A stretch of DNA of 5,982 nucleotides from a virus (lineage: Duplodnaviria > Heunggongvirae > Uroviricota > Caudoviricetes), in IMG/VR virus record IMGVR_UViG_2606217106_000001, positions 1 through 5,982 of that record. The stretch is one strand, 5' to 3'. Of this stretch, positions 1-5,982 are shown piece by piece. The position numbers and the translations under genes were made by a program. The first letter of the stretch is position 1. The number at the start of each line of letters is the position of its first letter. Below the pieces are notes generated by a model that saw nothing but the letters and a program-made list of their open reading frames with translations, made no database searches and had not been told where the DNA came from.

Positions 1-631
1 GAGATTGGGTTGGGAGAGTAGTCATGGTGACAGCCCCTATGTTGAATTCAATGAACTCACCACCAAGGCTTTCCACGACCATATAGGTGGTGAGACGTAC
101 AGGGGTGGAAATACCGGTCAACATAGAACCCGGCCCAACCGAAGTTGGCCCTGCACGCCCCACCATAATTTGGGCATAACGATGCTCATGACACGAAAAA
201 ACCGCATGAGCGCGGTTGTGCTCTATATTGAATTTCGGGTTTCCACGCCCGGCACCCGCTTTATAAGGTGCCTGAGCAGTGTAACGTCCCGGAATTGCAG
301 AATCAATATGCTGGTGGTCCTTCACACTCAACAAAATCACGCCTGAATTTCCACAAAGGACTAAAGCACTCATGCGGGTAGTCTTTGCGAAGATAGATAA
401 CGCGCTGTGTTTCTGGCTCCCAACGAATAACATGAACATAAAGTCCTCTTCCGTCACGAAACCAGCGGTTAAGTTCCTGCACAACTCGCCCCCCACAGTC
501 AGGTAAAGTTCTCTGTGGTTACTTACAGCCAGGTGATTTGGTAATCTGCATTCATGCCGTAACAACAGGTGTTCAGCGACGCTGACCACCAGCTGTTGCG
601 ACAAACGGTTATTTGCCGTTAAACTATTCAT
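1..631 (-). CDS. Hypothetical protein, N-terminal ~210 codons; gene continues beyond the window start. Position (after cro and the 183-aa gene) suggests a replication/early-right module, but function is unassigned
   Basis: Hand translation of the minus strand (plus-strand triplets 629-631, 626-628 ... 2-4) is stop-free to position 1. ATG at 631-629 overlaps the TGA of the upstream gene (ATGA at 628-631), with an in-frame stop just upstream at 635-637 and a GGAG about 10 nt upstream. It is missing from the ORF track because no stop lies in the window; the listed + ORF 5..346 is its same-register antisense shadow. No family recognised. Confidence 0.7.
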   Translation of the reverse strand, partial: MNSLTANNRLSQQLVVSVAEHLLLRHECRLPNHLAVSNHRELYLTVGGELCRNLTAGFVTEEDFMFMLFVGSQKHSALSIFAKTTRMSALVLCGNSGVILLSVKDHQHIDSAIPGRYTAQAPYKAGAGRGNPKFNIEHNRAHAVFSCHEHRYAQIMVGRAGPTSVGPGSMLTGISTPVRLTTYMVVESLGGEFIEFNIGAVTMTTLPTQS

Positions 632-1179
632 GCGTTAGTTTCTCCACAGACACAAAACGCCACGACGCCCGGAGCTGCACACTCGCGGGCGTCACTCTTT
701 TCTGGAGCGCAAAAGATTTTGTAGACCAGTGCTGCATGCTCCTGGAGCTTCGAAATTGACAGATACAACTCATCATTAATTGCTGTCTGCTCGTGTGGCT
801 CCACTACCCCATCTTCGATTGCCGAACGAATCTGCTTTGAGTAACTCCCGATCTGTTCGATGACTTCCAGCAGACGCTGGTTAATATCGGCGTTGTCCAC
901 ATCCTCGACGTCAGGAAGAGACACAAAGACGCCATTTGCAGACTGCGCCACAGCGTCAGCAATGAAGTGAGTTCCACCAGCACGTTGTAAAATCATTGCC
1001 CATCCCAGCGGGAAAATCTGATCGCCATCTGCACGAAGGCGGTTGAATAATGCGTTCTCTGTTACATCCAGCCACTCAGCAGCTTCAGCGTAACCCCCCG
1101 GCAACGCCGCGATAGTTTTTCTGACAGCTTTCACGTACCACTCAGGCTGTTTTTCCACTTTCCAGTGATGATTACCCAC
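628..1179 (-). CDS. 183-aa early protein in the cII position, immediately downstream of cro; possibly a CII-like/YdaT-like regulator, function not established
   Basis: GTG start at 1179-1177 preceded by AGGAGG with a 6-nt spacer (reverse complement of 1180-1195). The start overlaps the end of the cro-like gene by 8 nt and the stop overlaps the next start, so the three minus-strand genes are translationally coupled. The functional label is from position only. Confidence 0.7.
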   Translation of the reverse strand: MGNHHWKVEKQPEWYVKAVRKTIAALPGGYAEAAEWLDVTENALFNRLRADGDQIFPLGWAMILQRAGGTHFIADAVAQSANGVFVSLPDVEDVDNADINQRLLEVIEQIGSYSKQIRSAIEDGVVEPHEQTAINDELYLSISKLQEHAALVYKIFCAPEKSDARECAAPGVVAFCVCGETNA

Positions 1180-1432
1180 GGCTTACCTCCTGTTCCTGTG
1201 GTTTAAACCCATTCTGGTTTTGGCTAGATTGAAAACGTGCCGGATAAAGAATCTGCATTTCGCTGATTTCACCCTTAAAAAAATTGGCCAGACGTTCTGC
1301 AAGATCGATAGATGGAATTTGTTCCAGTCTTTCAATACGACTCAGCGTCGCTGGATTGACCTGAACGCCCGCAGCAACATGCTGCAAAGTAAATCCGTGC
1401 GCCTTACGCACATTCCGTAATGGTGATTGCAT
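1172..1432 (-). CDS. Cro-like HTH (XRE-family) transcriptional regulator, 86 aa
   Basis: ATG at 1432-1430 with GGAGG 4 nt upstream (reverse complement of 1433-1441). Protein has a classic XRE helix-turn-helix (FTLQHVAAGVQVNPATLSRIERLEQ). It is divergent from the cI-like gene across a 97-bp operator region. Confidence 0.85.
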   Translation of the reverse strand: MQSPLRNVRKAHGFTLQHVAAGVQVNPATLSRIERLEQIPSIDLAERLANFFKGEISEMQILYPARFQSSQNQNGFKPQEQEVSRG

Positions 1433-1529
1433 ATAACCTCCACATATTGCGTGATGAGCATATTATTTCACGCAAATATTTTGCGCAAGTTGATTTGCTT
1501 AACGCGCAATAAAGAAATGTAATAAACGC
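1433..1529. promoter_or_regulatory. OR-like immunity intergenic region with three dyad-symmetric operator candidates spaced 24 bp centre to centre, plus candidate divergent promoters pR (towards cro) and pRM (towards cI)
   Basis: Dyads at 1447-1461 (TTGC-N7-GCAT), 1471-1485 (CGCAA-N5-TTGCG) and 1495-1509 (TTGC-N7-GCAA). Candidate pR on the minus strand: -35 TTGCGC (reverse complement of 1483-1488), 17-nt spacer, -10 TAATAT (reverse complement of 1460-1465). Candidate pRM on the plus strand: -10 TAATAA at 1520-1525, which puts the transcript start at or near the cI ATG, and there is no SD before 1530. Confidence 0.6.
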
Positions 1530-2222
1530 ATGAACATAGGAAACCGAGTCAGACAACTTCGCCAGGCGAAGAACATGAAAATCGCCGATCTCGCTGAAGC
1601 AATAGGAGTGGATGCGGCGAATATCTCACGCCTGGAAACAGGTAAGCAGAAACAATTCACTGAACAAGCCCTGAGTAATATTGCCAGGAGCTTAGGTGTT
1701 GATATTGCTGATCTCTTTACCTCAGACGTCAAAAGTAATACTGTATGTAAAAACAGTATTAGTGAGGATGTTGCGCAGGTGAAGGATGTATTCCGTATTG
1801 AAATGCTGGATGTCAGTGCCAGTGCGGGAAATGGCCTTATCCAGGGCGGTGATGTCATTGATGTGATTCATGCCATTGAATACAGAACTGATAATGCTGT
1901 ATCGATGTTTGGCGGACGGCCAGCCAATCACATTAAAGTTATCAACGTTCGTGGGGACAGTATGTGTCCAACCATTGAGCCAGGAGATCTCATCTTCGTT
2001 GATATCAGTATCAATCAGTTTGATGGGGATGGTATATATGTATTTGGTTTTGATGATAAAATTTACGTCAAACGACTGCAAATGATACCTGATAAACTGC
2101 TGGTAATTTCTGATAATCAGATTTACCGCGAATGGGGAATTACCAGCGAAAACGAACATCGGTTTATGGTCTTTGGAAAGGTCTTAATCAGTCAGTCACA
2201 AACCCTTAAGCGACACAATTAA
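1530..2222 (+). CDS. cI-like prophage repressor, 230 aa: N-terminal XRE HTH plus C-terminal S24 (LexA-like) autopeptidase domain
   Basis: HTH at roughly residues 17-40 (KIADLAEAIGVDAANISRLETGKQ). Candidate Ala99-Gly100 cleavage site in the linker (SASAG-NG). GDSM with Ser144 and a KRL lysine (Lys181); the Ser-to-Lys spacing of 37 residues equals that of LexA. ATG at 1530 has no SD. Confidence 0.93.
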   Translation: MNIGNRVRQLRQAKNMKIADLAEAIGVDAANISRLETGKQKQFTEQALSNIARSLGVDIADLFTSDVKSNTVCKNSISEDVAQVKDVFRIEMLDVSASAGNGLIQGGDVIDVIHAIEYRTDNAVSMFGGRPANHIKVINVRGDSMCPTIEPGDLIFVDISINQFDGDGIYVFGFDDKIYVKRLQMIPDKLLVISDNQIYREWGITSENEHRFMVFGKVLISQSQTLKRHN

Positions 2223-2242
2223 CCCCTACCTCAACATCAATT

Positions 2243-2267
2243 AGCCACCAGAAGGTGGCTTTTCATT
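2243..2267 (+). terminator. Rho-independent terminator candidate downstream of the cI-like gene
   Basis: AGCCACC (2243-2249), 4-nt loop AGAA, GGTGGCT (2254-2260), followed by TTTTCATT; 21 bp after the cI stop. Confidence 0.6.
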
Positions 2268-2276
2268 ACCCACCAA

Positions 2277-2330
2277 ATTGCATATCTCGCAATAAAAACA
2301 CTTGCATAATGCGCAACTTCATTTTATCTT
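2277..2330 (+). promoter_or_regulatory. OL/pL-like region: two operator dyads matching the OR consensus, overlapping a candidate rightward promoter
   Basis: TTGC-N7-GCAA dyads at 2278-2292 and 2302-2316, centres 24 bp apart, with the shared core TTGCnTAnnnCGCAA. Candidate promoter: -35 TTGCAT at 2302-2307, 17-nt spacer, weak -10 TATCTT at 2325-2330. The promoter assignment is tentative. Confidence 0.45.
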
Positions 2331-2760
2331 TCTTTCCAGACATACAAACAAGGTACTAACAAAATTTGGTTGTAACACGGCGTATGGCACATGCGTCGTT
2401 AGCGGTCTGGTGACGTTAAAGGGGACAATCCACTCCTTGCTCGGGCAAACAAACCAGGTAGCCGGAATGTGCAAGTCAATGATGATGCTGATAAGACGCC
2501 TAACCAGCGTGGCGATTCGGTTTGACGCCTGGGAAGAGACCAGGGTGCAACGATGAGGGCATTTATGGAACCGCGACAAAGTGTGGTGCCGTAACTGGCT
2601 AAGTGCTCTCAGCGTTGTGGTGAATGCGCAGGCTGATGCGCGAAAGACATTGCAGCTATTGCGGAAAAGAGCTGTTCGGCGGGGCAATTAAACGCCCGTG
2701 AGAGTCTGAAATAACCGCAAGCCGGAGATCAGCACCGGTCACCACAACAGCCACTGCTTT

Positions 2761-2807
2761 AGCGGTACCAGTTTGTACACTTGCTTCCGGCTGGTACCGC
2801 TCTTTTT
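2761..2807 (+). terminator. Strong hairpin followed by a U-tract; candidate intrinsic terminator or attenuator upstream of the accessory operon
   Basis: Perfect 11-bp inverted repeat AGCGGTACCAG (2761-2771) and CTGGTACCGCT (2791-2801) around a 19-nt loop, then CTTTTTA at 2802-2808. The minus strand has no U-tract. Confidence 0.4.
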
Positions 2808-2896
2808 ACAAAACAGAGAAGAGCATCACCGGCCGACGGGCTCATAACCCAATCCATCCTGGCGGCTGCCACCGCAGGTGTTCTTCTCTGTTTTGT
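2808..2896. repeat. Perfect 15-bp inverted repeat enclosing 59 bp of GC-rich sequence, just upstream of the yfdP-like ribosome-binding site
   Basis: ACAAAACAGAGAAGA at 2808-2822 is the exact reverse complement of TCTTCTCTGTTTTGT at 2882-2896. The enclosed segment has further local dyads (for example CCTGGCGG...CCGCAGG). Confidence 0.6.
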
Positions 2897-2944
2897 GGAG
2901 AAACCAACCGACCTTGCAGGGTCGATATGATGAGGAGCAGCAAA

Positions 2945-3307
2945 ATGGCTAGCGAACGCAGTACTGATGTGCAGGCATTTATCGGGGAGCTGGACGGCGG
3001 CGTATTTGAAACCAAAATCGGCGCTGTTCTCAGTGAAGTCGCTTCCGGTGTGATGAATACGAAAACCAAAGGTAAGGTCTCGCTCAACCTGGAAATCGAA
3101 CCATTTGATGAGAACCGTGTGAAAATCAAACACAAACTCTCATATGTTCGCCCGACTAACCGCGGGAAAATTTCCGAAGAAGACACCACCGAAACGCCGA
3201 TGTATGTCAATCGCGGTGGTCGCCTGACTATTCTGCAGGAAGACCAGGGACAATTACTGACTCTTGCCGGTGAACCTGACGGAAAACTCCGCGCAGCAGG
3301 TCGTTAA
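2945..3307 (+). CDS. yfdP: YfdP-like prophage protein of unknown function, 120 aa from this start
   Basis: ATG at 2945 preceded by GAGGAG (2932-2937) with a 7-nt spacer. The ORF track begins at ATG 2927 (126 aa), which remains an alternative. Symbol assigned by synteny with yfdQ/yfdR and recalled length; not verified. Confidence 0.7.
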   Translation: MASERSTDVQAFIGELDGGVFETKIGAVLSEVASGVMNTKTKGKVSLNLEIEPFDENRVKIKHKLSYVRPTNRGKISEEDTTETPMYVNRGGRLTILQEDQGQLLTLAGEPDGKLRAAGR

Positions 3308-3372
3308 TATCGTTTTTAATTAACTGATTATTTATCTCATCACTGAATATCTTTATATAGTGAGGACTTATT

Positions 3373-4197
3373 ATGTCTCAGAACTTAGACGCAACCGCAA
3401 TTAATCAAATCCATGCCCTTATTTCTGCTCAGGGTGTTAATGAAATTATCAGTAAGATTGGTGCCGATGCTGTGGCATTGCCTGAGAATTTCCGCATTCA
3501 TGATCTGGAAAAATTTAATTTAAATCGCTTCCGTTTCCGTGGTGCGCTTTCCACTGCCAGCATCGATGACTTTACCCGTTATTCTAAAGATCTTGCAGAT
3601 GAAGGCACCCGCTGCTTTATCGATGCTGATAATATGCGTGCCGTCAGTGTGCTTAACCTGGGTACTATTGATGAACCAGGTCACGCAGATAACACCGCCA
3701 CACTCAAACTGAAAAAGACAGCACCGTTCTCTGCTCTGTTGTCTGTTAACGGCGAGCGTAACTCCCAGAAGTCACTGGCAGAATGGATTGAAGACTGGGC
3801 CGACTACCTTGTGGGCTTTGATGCTAATGGTGACGCTATTCAGGCAACAAAAGCGGCTGCGGCAGTCCGTAAAATCACGATTGAAGCAAACCAGACCGCT
3901 GATTTTGAAGATAATGACTTCAGCGGCAAACGCTCCCTGATGGAATCTGTCGAAGCGAAGACCAAAGACATTATGCCAGTGACATTTGAATTTAAATGCG
4001 TTCCGTTTGAAGGCCTGAAAGAACGTCCGTTTAAATTACGCCTCAGCATTATCACTGGCGATCGTCCTGTACTGGTTCTGCGCATTATTCAGCTGGAGGC
4101 GGTGCAGGAAGAAATGGCTAACGAATTTCGTGATCTGCTTGTTGAGAAATTTAAGGACAGCAAAGTAGAAACCTTTATTGGTACTTTCACCGCCTGA
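3373..4197 (+). CDS. yfdQ: YfdQ-like prophage protein (DUF2303 family as I recall it), 274 aa, function unknown
   Basis: ATG at 3373 with GTGAGGA (3360-3366) at good spacing; a long uninterrupted ORF of protein-like composition. Length and position match CPS-53 YfdQ from memory. Confidence 0.88.
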
Positions 4198-4209
4198 TTT
4201 CATTACTGC

Positions 4210-4231
4210 AAATGCCCCTGCGGGGGCATTT
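4210..4231 (+). other. GC-rich hairpin in the yfdQ-yfdR spacer; weak terminator, attenuator or RNA-stability element
   Basis: AAATGCCCC (4210-4218), loop TGCG, GGGGCATTT (4223-4231): a 9-bp stem starting 13 nt after the yfdQ stop. The 3' T-run is short and mostly inside the stem. Confidence 0.35.
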
Positions 4232-4324
4232 ATGGAAACATAATTTACTCAATAATCGCCGGATGGTGATGGCTTCCTTTTACCAGAATTCAGCGCGGTG
4301 CAGCGCATATACGTGGAGAACAAA

Positions 4325-4861
4325 ATGTCATTTATTAAAACTTTTTCCGGGAAGCATTTTTATTATGACAGGATAAATAAAGACGACATCGTGATTAACG
4401 ATATCGCGGTTTCCCTTTCAAATATCTGTCGCTTTGCAGGACATCTTTCACACTTCTACAGCGTCGCCCAACATGCGGTGCTTTGCAGCCAGCTGGTACC
4501 GCAGGAATTTGCTTTTGAAGCGTTAATGCATGATGCAACAGAAGCGTATTGCCAGGATATTCCCGCTCCACTGAAACGCCTTCTTCCTGACTATAAACGG
4601 ATGGAAGAAAAAATAGACGCCGTAATCCGTGAGAAATACGGGTTACCCCCGGTTATGAGCACGCCCGTGAAATATGCCGATCTCATCATGCTGGCAACCG
4701 AACGCCGCGATCTCGGGCTTGATGATAGCTCTTTCTGGCCTGTACTGGAAGGTATCCCGGCAACAGAGATGTTCAAAGTGATTCCACTGTCGCCAGGCCA
4801 TGCCTACGGGATGTTTATGGAACGTTTTAACGAGTTATCGGAGTTACGCAAATGCGCATGA
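4325..4861 (+). CDS. yfdR: YfdR-like HD-domain phosphohydrolase (YfbR-type 5'-deoxynucleotidase family), 178 aa
   Basis: ATG at 4325 with GGAGAA (4314-4319) upstream; the ORF-track start at 4298 is a GTG 9 codons further up with no SD. HD-domain residues are visible: H40, H43, H50 and the H69-D70 pair (FAGHLSH ... LMHDATEAY). Confidence 0.88.
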   Translation: MSFIKTFSGKHFYYDRINKDDIVINDIAVSLSNICRFAGHLSHFYSVAQHAVLCSQLVPQEFAFEALMHDATEAYCQDIPAPLKRLLPDYKRMEEKIDAVIREKYGLPPVMSTPVKYADLIMLATERRDLGLDDSSFWPVLEGIPATEMFKVIPLSPGHAYGMFMERFNELSELRKCA

Positions 4862-5202
4862 ATGTTTTCGAAATGGAAGGGTTTCTTCGCGGGAAATGTG
4901 TACCACGAGATCTGAAAGTGAATGAAACAAATGCTGAGTATCTGGTGCGTAAATTCGATGAAGTACGTGCTGAGGCTCGCAACGAGGGTATTAACTATAC
5001 CGCAAGCCGTCTTGCTGCGGCTTTCAATCACGGATTTATCAATAAGTCTTTACGTGAAGTTTTCGACGTTACACGCATGATTCTGTCAGCGAAAGAAGAG
5101 TTGGCTAATGAACCACACCCGATTGATGGCCTGTCCGGTGAATATGCGGAGAAATCCCTAGAAGAATGGGCGGAACAGATTCGCAAAGGAGGCAACCAGT
5201 GA
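4852..5202 (+). CDS. YfdS-like small prophage protein, 116 aa; C-terminus ends in the RKGGNQ junction motif
   Basis: ATG at 4852 with GGAG (4840-4843) 8 nt upstream; it overlaps the yfdR stop (4859-4861) by 10 nt. An in-frame ATG at 4858 gives an ATGA overlap instead. The stop overlaps the next gene's GTG start. Confidence 0.75.
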   Translation: MRMNVFEMEGFLRGKCVPRDLKVNETNAEYLVRKFDEVRAEARNEGINYTASRLAAAFNHGFINKSLREVFDVTRMILSAKEELANEPHPIDGLSGEYAEKSLEEWAEQIRKGGNQ

Positions 5203-5204
5203 GC
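5180..5204 (+). repeat. Copy 1 of a 25-bp perfect direct repeat spanning a gene junction (codons for RKGGNQ, SD, stop and GTG start)
   Basis: TTCGCAAAGGAGGCAACCAGTGAGC is identical at 5180-5204 and 5857-5881. About 40 bp of downstream flank is similar but not identical (roughly 70% by eye). Confidence 0.9.
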
Positions 5205-5879
5205 AAGATTGACTATCAAGAACTGCGCGAGGCGGCGGAACAGGCAACGCAAGATGAATGGGTAGCATATATTTTGCCGGGTCATAACGGCATTTATCCT
5301 GCGCGCACGTCTGAGGGTAGGCATTGCGGATACTTTATTGACTGGCCTGGCGTCTGTCAGGGGCGGGAGAGCATCAGCATCAGAACCTACGCAGTGAATT
5401 GCAATGACGCATGGCTAAACACCGAAGGTGATGACATCTCCGGCTCATACGTTAAGTACAAAGACCATCAGGAAGTGGTTGCCGCTCTTGAGGCCAAGTG
5501 CGCGGCGCTGGCTGCTGAGAATGCGGGAATAAAGTCTGCAATTCCAAAATCACGGGATATTGAGGATGACAATGACAATATGGATGACGTATCTCTCGCG
5601 GAAGACTTCGGGTTCAATCATGCAATAGAACGGATGAGGAGACAGATACCTGAAACGCCAACCACTGATGCTTTCCTGGCTGAAGTCCGGGCGCAGGGGG
5701 TGGATGCTGCTATAGAAGCTGCAAAAAATCTGGTGGCCCAAGAATATGAGTGTAAGGATTTCAAAGCGGCGCAGAGTGATTGCTGTATGTACCCTGGTTC
5801 AGACCTGGTAGGGAAGGTTGAAATGACTGAGTGGTTAGTTGACTTTGCTGCCCAGCTTCGCAAAGGAGGCAACCAGTGA
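5199..5879 (+). CDS. Acidic hypothetical protein, 226 aa, tentatively Ead/Ea22-like (typical lambdoid early-left accessory gene)
   Basis: GTG at 5199 preceded by AAGGAGG (5186-5192) with a 6-nt spacer, overlapping the upstream stop (GTGA). The ORF-track start at ATG 5166 has no SD and would overlap the upstream gene by 37 nt. N-terminus SKIDYQELREAAEQ; C-terminus LRKGGNQ. Confidence 0.75.
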   Translation: MSKIDYQELREAAEQATQDEWVAYILPGHNGIYPARTSEGRHCGYFIDWPGVCQGRESISIRTYAVNCNDAWLNTEGDDISGSYVKYKDHQEVVAALEAKCAALAAENAGIKSAIPKSRDIEDDNDNMDDVSLAEDFGFNHAIERMRRQIPETPTTDAFLAEVRAQGVDAAIEAAKNLVAQEYECKDFKAAQSDCCMYPGSDLVGKVEMTEWLVDFAAQLRKGGNQ

Positions 5880-5881
5880 GC
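5857..5881 (+). repeat. Copy 2 of the 25-bp perfect direct repeat at the next gene junction
   Basis: Identical to 5180-5204, 677 bp downstream, in the same relation to stop and start codons. Confidence 0.9.
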
Positions 5882-5982
5882 GAAATTAATTACCAGGCAC
5901 TGCGTGAGGTGGCGGAACGTGCAATTCCAGCAATGGAACGCCTGTTAATGTTGCCAGTTGATGATGATTTGTTAAGTGAACA
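5876..5982 (+). CDS. Paralogue of the preceding gene, first 35 codons only; runs off the window end
   Basis: GTG at 5876 behind the same AAGGAGG and GTGA stop-start overlap. The N-terminus VSEINYQALREVAER parallels VSKIDYQELREAAEQ of the upstream gene. Open to the window end, so not in the ORF track. Confidence 0.55.
   Translation, partial: MSEINYQALREVAERAIPAMERLLMLPVDDDLLSE

Follow-up and report, generated by a model that had tools for sequence, protein, structure and literature searches.

Why should two successive gene junctions of one phage operon carry the same 25 bp of DNA? The question is raised by a 5,982-nt stretch of viral DNA (Caudoviricetes; IMG/VR record IMGVR_UViG_2606217106_000001, positions 1 to 5,982; hereafter the window), in which an earlier note, made from the letters alone, had remarked a perfect direct repeat and proposed that it links tandem gene cassettes. 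We consider it probable that the 25 bp form the core of a boundary sequence conserved among lambdoid phages, i.e. the junction that precedes genes of the ead/Ea22 type, which would serve both as a ribosome-binding site (RBS) joint and as a patch of homology for recombination.

A scan of the window finds TTCGCAAAGGAGGCAACCAGTGAGC exactly twice, both times on the plus strand (junction copies 1 and 2 in Table 1), with no third site at up to three mismatches. The runner-up ungapped match in the window reaches 16 of 25 bases, and none of 200 dinucleotide-preserving shuffles of the window matched the 25-mer. The two copies are embedded in a longer direct repeat of 89 nt with 78% identity, whose own two copies are spaced by 677 bp. 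Each 25-mer holds a strong Shine-Dalgarno (SD) sequence, AAGGAGG, a 6-nt spacer and then a GTG start codon overlapping a TGA stop codon (GTGA). The ends and starts of the open reading frames (ORFs) agree with this decoding at both copies: the ORF upstream of junction 1 closes with EWAEQIRKGGNQ before its stop, the ORF between the copies starts with VSKIDYQELREAAEQ at the GTG overlapping that stop and itself closes with EWLVDFAAQLRKGGNQ, and the third ORF begins at its own GTG with the N-terminus VSEINYQALREVAER. The repeat is thus where the earlier note had placed it, at successive gene junctions, and reads as it had been read there, as an RKGGNQ tail, an SD, a stop and the start of the next gene.

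The 4-nt overlap at junction 1 is also used by the RefSeq annotation of Escherichia coli TOE17, a genome 99.9% identical to the window. With stop and start overlapping and the SD lying inside the upstream ORF, we infer from the anatomy that translation across these junctions is probably coupled. The arrangement of a 4-nt GTGA, an upstream-embedded SD and a 6-nt spacer is that of the coupled stop/start junctions (ATGA/GTGA) of phage operons in general; unlike the linker, however, ordinary junctions of this type are not conserved between unrelated pairs of genes. The junction of yfdR with the gene that follows it is such an ordinary case. A weaker version of the linker had been suspected at this yfdR end (ELRKCA), and this suggestion did not survive: anchored on the stop codon, 6 of 25 bases agree, against a mean of 6.3, and 63% of window positions match as well, so that the site is background and was rejected as a third copy.

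The distribution of the 25-mer reveals extensive reassortment of the genes on its two sides. An exact-match scan of IMG/VR returned at least 119 contigs, related E. coli strains among them, and the counts of junctions and flanks given here are for the matches listed. The contigs almost always carry one copy, and two are found in one other contig (L007). Flanks outside the conserved part were clustered at an ungapped identity of at least 80%, by which clusters can be split; on this basis the 118 junctions comprise 17 upstream and 21 downstream sequence types seen in 56 combinations, with 54 four-gamete quartets in which both upstream types occur with both downstream types. Most of the genes behind the linker are Ead-type and have just their first ~16 residues in common, and the non-Ead genes found directly behind it encode a 335-aa phosphoadenosine phosphosulfate (PAPS) reductase (PF01507) and uncharacterized proteins of 74 and 118 aa. 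When one representative per combination is compared, the island of conservation is sharp, running from about -17 to +68 relative to the start of the 25-mer, and in the 1302 pairs that differ on both sides the identity beyond it falls to 25-29%, which is random. The linker is therefore what is understood by a boundary sequence, namely a short stretch of DNA that stays conserved from phage to phage although the modules on either side of it differ.

Homology blocks between the window and the listed loci (length of at least 150 nt, identity of at least 90%) have ends that cluster at 5202-5274 and 5879-5908, and just two blocks cross junction 1. Similarly, megablast against 5,426 complete E. coli genomes gives many matches that break off at window position 5202 or begin at 5844-5883; the segment 4298-5982 is covered to at least 80% in 7 of these genomes, while some part of it is carried by 3,644. 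Alignment across related prophages, the check proposed with the original observation, therefore reveals no fixed gene order, and the gene content both behind and between the linkers varies widely.

The most direct evidence comes from a test of the predicted deletion: the sequence expected if the two copies recombined was built by joining window 4961-5204 to 5882-5982 and searched for in genomes. It is present as contiguous sequence in six E. coli genomes with 99.4-99.7% identity. One of them, RM10809-3 (L200), carries the same prophage, with the repressor, yfdP, yfdQ and yfdR, a 116-aa protein under the identical accession and the downstream genes as far as xisR and int, and is without the middle Ead gene. 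Aligned with TOE17, it gives two collinear blocks, whose 66-nt overlap in RM10809-3 is exactly the repeated island, and the difference between the two prophages is therefore one 677-bp repeat unit. The joint itself consists of the left flank of copy 1, the 25-mer and the right flank of copy 2. Other cargo is found between the same flanks, i.e. a class I methyltransferase gene with GGAGG(G)CAACCAGTGA at either end (822-bp span) and a 77-aa ORF (about 575-bp span), so that at least four alleles occupy this position: nothing, the 677-bp Ead gene, the methyltransferase and the 77-aa ORF. The data are compatible with both directions of the 677-bp change, deletion or insertion. Two otherwise syntenic prophages that differ by exactly one linker-bounded gene provide a clear natural example, and together with the reassortment this natural product, jointed inside the repeat, supports the proposal that the linker could support homologous exchange or deletion of cassettes.

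These observations bear on an old debate about the origin of phage mosaicism: is it produced by homologous recombination at conserved boundaries, or by illegitimate recombination with selection acting afterwards? Under the second model (Hendrix), intact genes are what selection retains, and the island would simply travel with the Ead module and would not be the place at which joints form. It is the model generally favoured for mosaicism where a boundary sequence is absent (PMC3233612), and in our data some breakpoints are indeed intragenic or at the edge of the island, and several other types of junction precede Ead genes. Independent illegitimate events would not, however, leave the same 25+ bp at 56 or more joints, nor is that sequence expected on both sides of non-Ead cassettes. 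The window and RM10809-3 differ by exactly one repeat unit, and the overlap at the joint is ambiguous over 66 nt, a pattern to be expected of homologous events and not of illegitimate ones. Illegitimate recombination is therefore an unlikely origin for these joints.

To assess what holds the core constant, we made a degenerate scan in which any codons for (R/S)KGGNQ-stop were allowed and compared the genuine junctions. Across these AAAGGAGG is invariant. The SD is formed by the codons for K and the first G, and in these no synonymous variant occurs, whereas the R, second G, N and Q codons do change at their third positions (CGC to CGT or CGA, GGC to GGT or GGA, AAC to AAT and CAG to CAA), the last of these changes converting the start codon to ATG. 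In addition, the core AAAGGAGGCAACCAGTGA is also found where stop codons close the upstream frame and no upstream ORF reads through. The invariance of the SD bases and the occurrence of the core behind a closed frame indicate that the core is first of all the RBS and start of the downstream gene, and the RKGGNQ peptide would then be largely a by-product of this site being read in the upstream frame. For annotation, the implication is that many 'unrelated' prophage proteins owe their RKGGNQ tails to a ribosome-binding site in the same way.

The same comparison bears on the possibility that paralogy and protein-level constraint alone, acting on a conserved C-terminal tail and a conserved N-terminal helix, account for the DNA identity without any role in recombination. 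Both genes downstream of the copies belong to PF13935 and have its conserved N-terminus, and many upstream genes among the matches listed end in the similar peptide (F)AAQLRKGGNQ, which speaks for this possibility. Constraint on the protein does not, however, explain a core that is present without an upstream ORF and before unrelated genes, nor K and G codons that show no synonymous change while other third positions do, nor the four-gamete reassortment and the clean indel jointed inside the repeat. The earlier note had itself named a purely protein-level origin as the finding that would speak against its proposal; we judge this to be even less likely than illegitimate recombination.

That the conservation of the DNA exceeds the needs of the peptide might also be explained by a regulatory RNA element, such as a small RNA target, an RNase site or an attenuator. 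The invariant bases are, however, exactly those of the SD and of the start and stop codons. An Rfam search of the window returned no family overlapping the junction or the island, and the predicted folding of the 89-nt island is no better than that of shuffles (z = 0.33), which makes an RNA element very improbable. We take the same view of a site-specific cassette system resembling an integron or shufflon, in which the linker would be the recognition site of a recombinase. Cassettes bracketed by a short repeat in direct orientation are certainly reminiscent of such systems, and yet the dedicated recombinase and structured site that characterize them are missing: no recombinase lies beside the array, the prophage int at the attachment site being the sole one present, the linker contains neither an inverted repeat nor a stable fold, the ends of homology are dispersed over ~70 nt with no single point of exchange, and the sequence is fully accounted for by an RBS and coding ends. 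A recombinase recognition site here would thus be a most surprising finding.

We therefore return to the boundary sequence as a joint for translation and a patch of homology. The strong SD in the last codons of the upstream gene, with the GTG/TGA overlap six bases on, would couple translation of each pair of genes. Since the same island of ~85-90 bp with its 25-bp perfect core is found on many otherwise unrelated neighbouring genes, it probably acts as a patch of homology by which general recombination joins different modules. Recombination between two direct copies would delete or duplicate the intervening gene precisely and leave both neighbours intact and translatable, and recombination between co-resident or infecting phages would exchange cargo. 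The comparative evidence for such a focus is strong, and consists of the four-gamete reassortment, the clean indel of one unit and the clustering of breakpoints.

An enzymatic mechanism is suggested by the work of Martinsohn et al. (2008) and De Paepe et al. (2014), who found that Rad52-like recombinases of phages recombine diverged sequences and that mosaics are flanked by short patches of identity above background. For efficient pairing Red-beta needs a segment of at least 23-27 bp, and RecA one of at least 31-34 bp (PMC3945230); a core of 25 bp within ~85 bp of ~80% identity is thus a plausible substrate for a phage Rad52-like recombinase. Erf/Rad52 or RecT is encoded in the same operon of several linker-bearing prophages.

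Several points weigh against this interpretation. In the annotated context of the window prophage there is no recognizable Red, RecT or Erf recombinase between the repressor and int, and so an enzyme supplied in trans, by the host or a co-resident prophage, or else RecA acting inefficiently, would be needed. The 25 bp of perfect identity falls short of the pairing minimum of RecA. Even in TOE17, the closest relative, the two copies do not match exactly: copy 2 has a synonymous C to T change at window position 5873 (L001 10576; AAC to AAT) that splits the identity into 16 + 8 bp, a variant of junction 2 shared by a further locus (L052). The linker is also one favoured site and not the sole one: Ead-type starts follow other junction sequences as well, of which the linker is the commonest of several, and some breakpoints lie within genes. 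The sample of junctions was chosen for the exact 25-mer and includes related strains, so that its counts are not of independent events. Finally, all of the evidence for recombination is comparative; the studies of relaxed homologous recombination cited above were experimental and concerned other loci, whereas this junction is known from the comparison of sequences.

The element is not new. The GenBank record of phage Sf6 (NC_005344) has a feature, 'bsq3; boundary sequence', on 31 nt that begin one base after the start of the ead/Ea22-like gene, and the corresponding sequence of phage HK620 is identical at all 31 positions. Against these the window matches at 28 of 31 positions in copy 1 (5200-5230) and 26 of 31 in copy 2 (5877-5907), and the hkaH/hkaG junction of HK620 carries the 25-mer with a single A to G mismatch. 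The position on the map is also common to TOE17, Sf6 and HK620, i.e. the start of an ead-type gene in the early-left operon between the recombination genes and xis/int. The HK620 paper is reported to describe seven boundary sequences for the metabolic domain of lambdoid phages. In a passage of a later paper (PMC3233612), Susskind & Botstein 1978 and Clark et al. 2001 are credited with the model in which short conserved boundary sequences are the targets of homologous recombination and modules are thereby assorted. As judged from the Sf6 feature and that secondary citation, an element of this kind, and indeed this very sequence, had thus been described before.

The window agrees with bsq3 (Clark et al. 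2001 for HK620; NC_005344 for Sf6) in position, sequence and proposed role as a focus of recombination, and differs in two respects. The Sf6 annotation covers the 31 nt after the start codon alone and the RBS upstream of it in Sf6 is different, whereas conservation in both the window and HK620 reaches further upstream, through the RBS and into the 3' end of the preceding gene. The window also has two copies in one operon, which makes an intramolecular deletion possible, and its product is seen in nature. What is added here is modest, namely a clean natural indel of one cassette and the extent of the reassortment tabulated, with no new kind of system; it remains that a real recombination linker had been recognized correctly from raw sequence in the earlier note.

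A search of a phage collection with the 89-nt island returned 310 records of Escherichia, Shigella and Salmonella phages, HK620 and Sf6 included. In a set of one genome per species the exact 25-mer has no match, and a 20-mer core of it has four, two of them in Escherichia. Of the other two, a 1.4-kb contig of a metagenome-assembled genome (MAG) labelled 'Sutterella' (L205, CAJKAP010000027.1) shares 99% identity with prophage DNA of E. coli and has probably been binned wrongly. The match in an Anaerolineales MAG of 67% GC (L203, CAYRFV010000247.1) was rejected: there is no other similarity, and about one chance match to a 20-mer is expected in this amount of sequence. The junction thus appears essentially confined to phages of Escherichia, Shigella and Salmonella. 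Separately, the Actinobacillus phage vB_Apl-pPE4 (H146, PP818812.1), whose recorded host is Actinobacillus pleuropneumoniae, has an Ead-start island at 10811-10864 with 90.7% identity over 54 nt, an unexpectedly close likeness for a host in the Pasteurellaceae.

Many matches to the Ead cassette and the junction also fall on E. coli plasmids of ~90-100 kb (271 of 847 places for the cassette), and others in a Punavirus P1 record (H123); P1-like phage-plasmids therefore share the junction and could exchange cargo with lambdoid prophages. One may go further and ask whether the island is under second-order selection as a signal for cassette exchange, beyond being a passively shared RBS, with the ead/ea region a dedicated hotspot for accessory genes. 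We think this improbable. If it were true, lambdoid phages and P1-like phage-plasmids would trade small cargo genes in frame and pre-equipped for expression, possibly genes for control of lysogeny or anti-defence, in a functional analogue of the integron driven by general or phage homologous recombination.

The genes at the junctions were assigned by profile searches. The gene between the two copies matches the Pfam family Ead_Ea22 (PF13935) with 97.3 bits (E = 1.5e-27), and the 5' end of the next, up to 5980, does so with 36.2 bits, the gathering cut-off being 27 bits; a search of NCBIfam gave nothing informative for the junction genes. The gene upstream of junction 1 is of a different nature. 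Its 116-aa product has no Pfam match, but residues 1-42 match a YfdS/Eae-type PHROG (phrog_583) while Ead-type PHROGs align by their C-terminal ends with residues 36-116, and over its last 244 nt the gene shares 93% identity with the 3' end of a bona fide Ead gene from another strain (L201). It is a chimera, in which an N-terminus of YfdS/Eae type is joined to an Ead-type C-terminal module, and not a full paralogue; it carries the linker-type 3' junction because its 3' part is an Ead-type module. The description of the locus as tandem paralogous cassettes is to be corrected on this point.

Phage lambda has a single ea22; the window prophage has two or three Ead-type genes in tandem, and its upstream YfdS/Eae-type gene has gained an Ead-type C-terminal module. 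Within the Ead/Ea22 family (PF13935; lambda Ea22, P22 Ead), Ea22 has been described as a mosaic, in which a shared N-terminal segment and coiled coil are joined to unrelated C-terminal domains (PMC10834534), and this description matches the sub-gene mosaicism seen here. The function is pro-lysogenic in lambda and in Shiga toxin (Stx) phages. In the loci compared the motif FLAEVRAQG has 122 matches with 30 different continuations, a median of 48 residues before the stop, and homology blocks begin at 5640-5660, just ahead of it. A similar stretch, FDEVRAEA, lies at the breakpoint cluster of the 116-aa gene (4940-4979). The second conserved island that FLAEVRAQG marks inside Ead-type genes has the appearance of a boundary within the gene, at which C-terminal domains could be swapped.

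The window is the immunity region and early-left (PL) operon of a lambdoid E. coli prophage inserted beside mlrA. CII-like and Cro-like genes lie on the minus strand; the plus strand has, in order, a gene for a CI-like S24 repressor, yfdP, yfdQ (DUF2303), yfdR (HD hydrolase), the 116-aa gene and the two Ead/Ea22-like genes, and in TOE17 the operon runs on to xisR and int. The features of the junction region are collected in Table 1.

Table 1. Junction copies, conserved islands and genes at the 3' end of the window (positions in the window)
Feature	Position	Strand	Details
Junction copy 1, 25-mer	5180-5204	+	SD AAGGAGG 5186-5192, spacer CAACCA, GTG 5199-5201, TGA 5200-5202
Junction copy 2, identical 25-mer	5857-5881	+	SD 5863-5869, GTG 5876-5878, TGA 5877-5879
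Conservation island, copy 1	5159-5247	+	Last ~6-10 codons of upstream gene, RBS, first ~16 codons of Ead gene
Conservation island, copy 2	5836-5924	+	89-nt repeat, bsq3 comparison
Internal conserved motif FLAEVRAQG in Ead gene	5673-5699	+	Second breakpoint cluster, before variable C-terminal module
yfdR, HD-domain 5'-deoxynucleotidase	4325-4861	+	3' end an ordinary overlapping junction, no linker copy
116-aa gene upstream of junction 1	4852-5202	+	Chimera; C-terminal module ends in linker
Ead/Ea22-like gene, 226 aa, GTG start; 677-bp 'cassette' between junction copies	5199-5879	+	Pfam PF13935
Second Ead/Ea22-like gene, 5' end, cut by window end	5876-5982	+	Pfam PF13935

The second Ead/Ea22-like gene, the third at these junctions, is annotated as a C-terminally truncated pseudogene in TOE17 (L001 10636-10950) and in the syntenic RM10809-3. 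The Prokaryotic Genome Annotation Pipeline (PGAP) is inconsistent in its choice of starts, with GTG for the gene at 5199 and a later ATG (window 5933) for this one, and a downstream ATG is likewise chosen in a further locus (L003, 3082). The Pfam Ead_Ea22 alignment begins at residue 2 of the protein read from the GTG, which argues for the GTG at 5876 as the start of the gene and not the later ATG.

Two further observations were made outside the junction region. Between the gene for the CI-like repressor and yfdP there are ~700 bp (2223-2926) in which no gene is annotated in the near-identical RefSeq genome, and which include a 25-nt inverted repeat (2808-2832 and 2872-2896) with 84% complementarity and a 39-nt loop. 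At the left end of the window, on the minus strand, strong Rfam matches were found to the C4 antisense RNA (RF01695, 82 bits, 83-170) and the Hfq-binding RNA isrK (RF01394, 62 bits, 195-271), together with a sub-threshold match to the c4-a1b1 target (232-284); these matches over 83-284 suggest an antisense module of the P1/P7 type for control of immunity or of an antirepressor.

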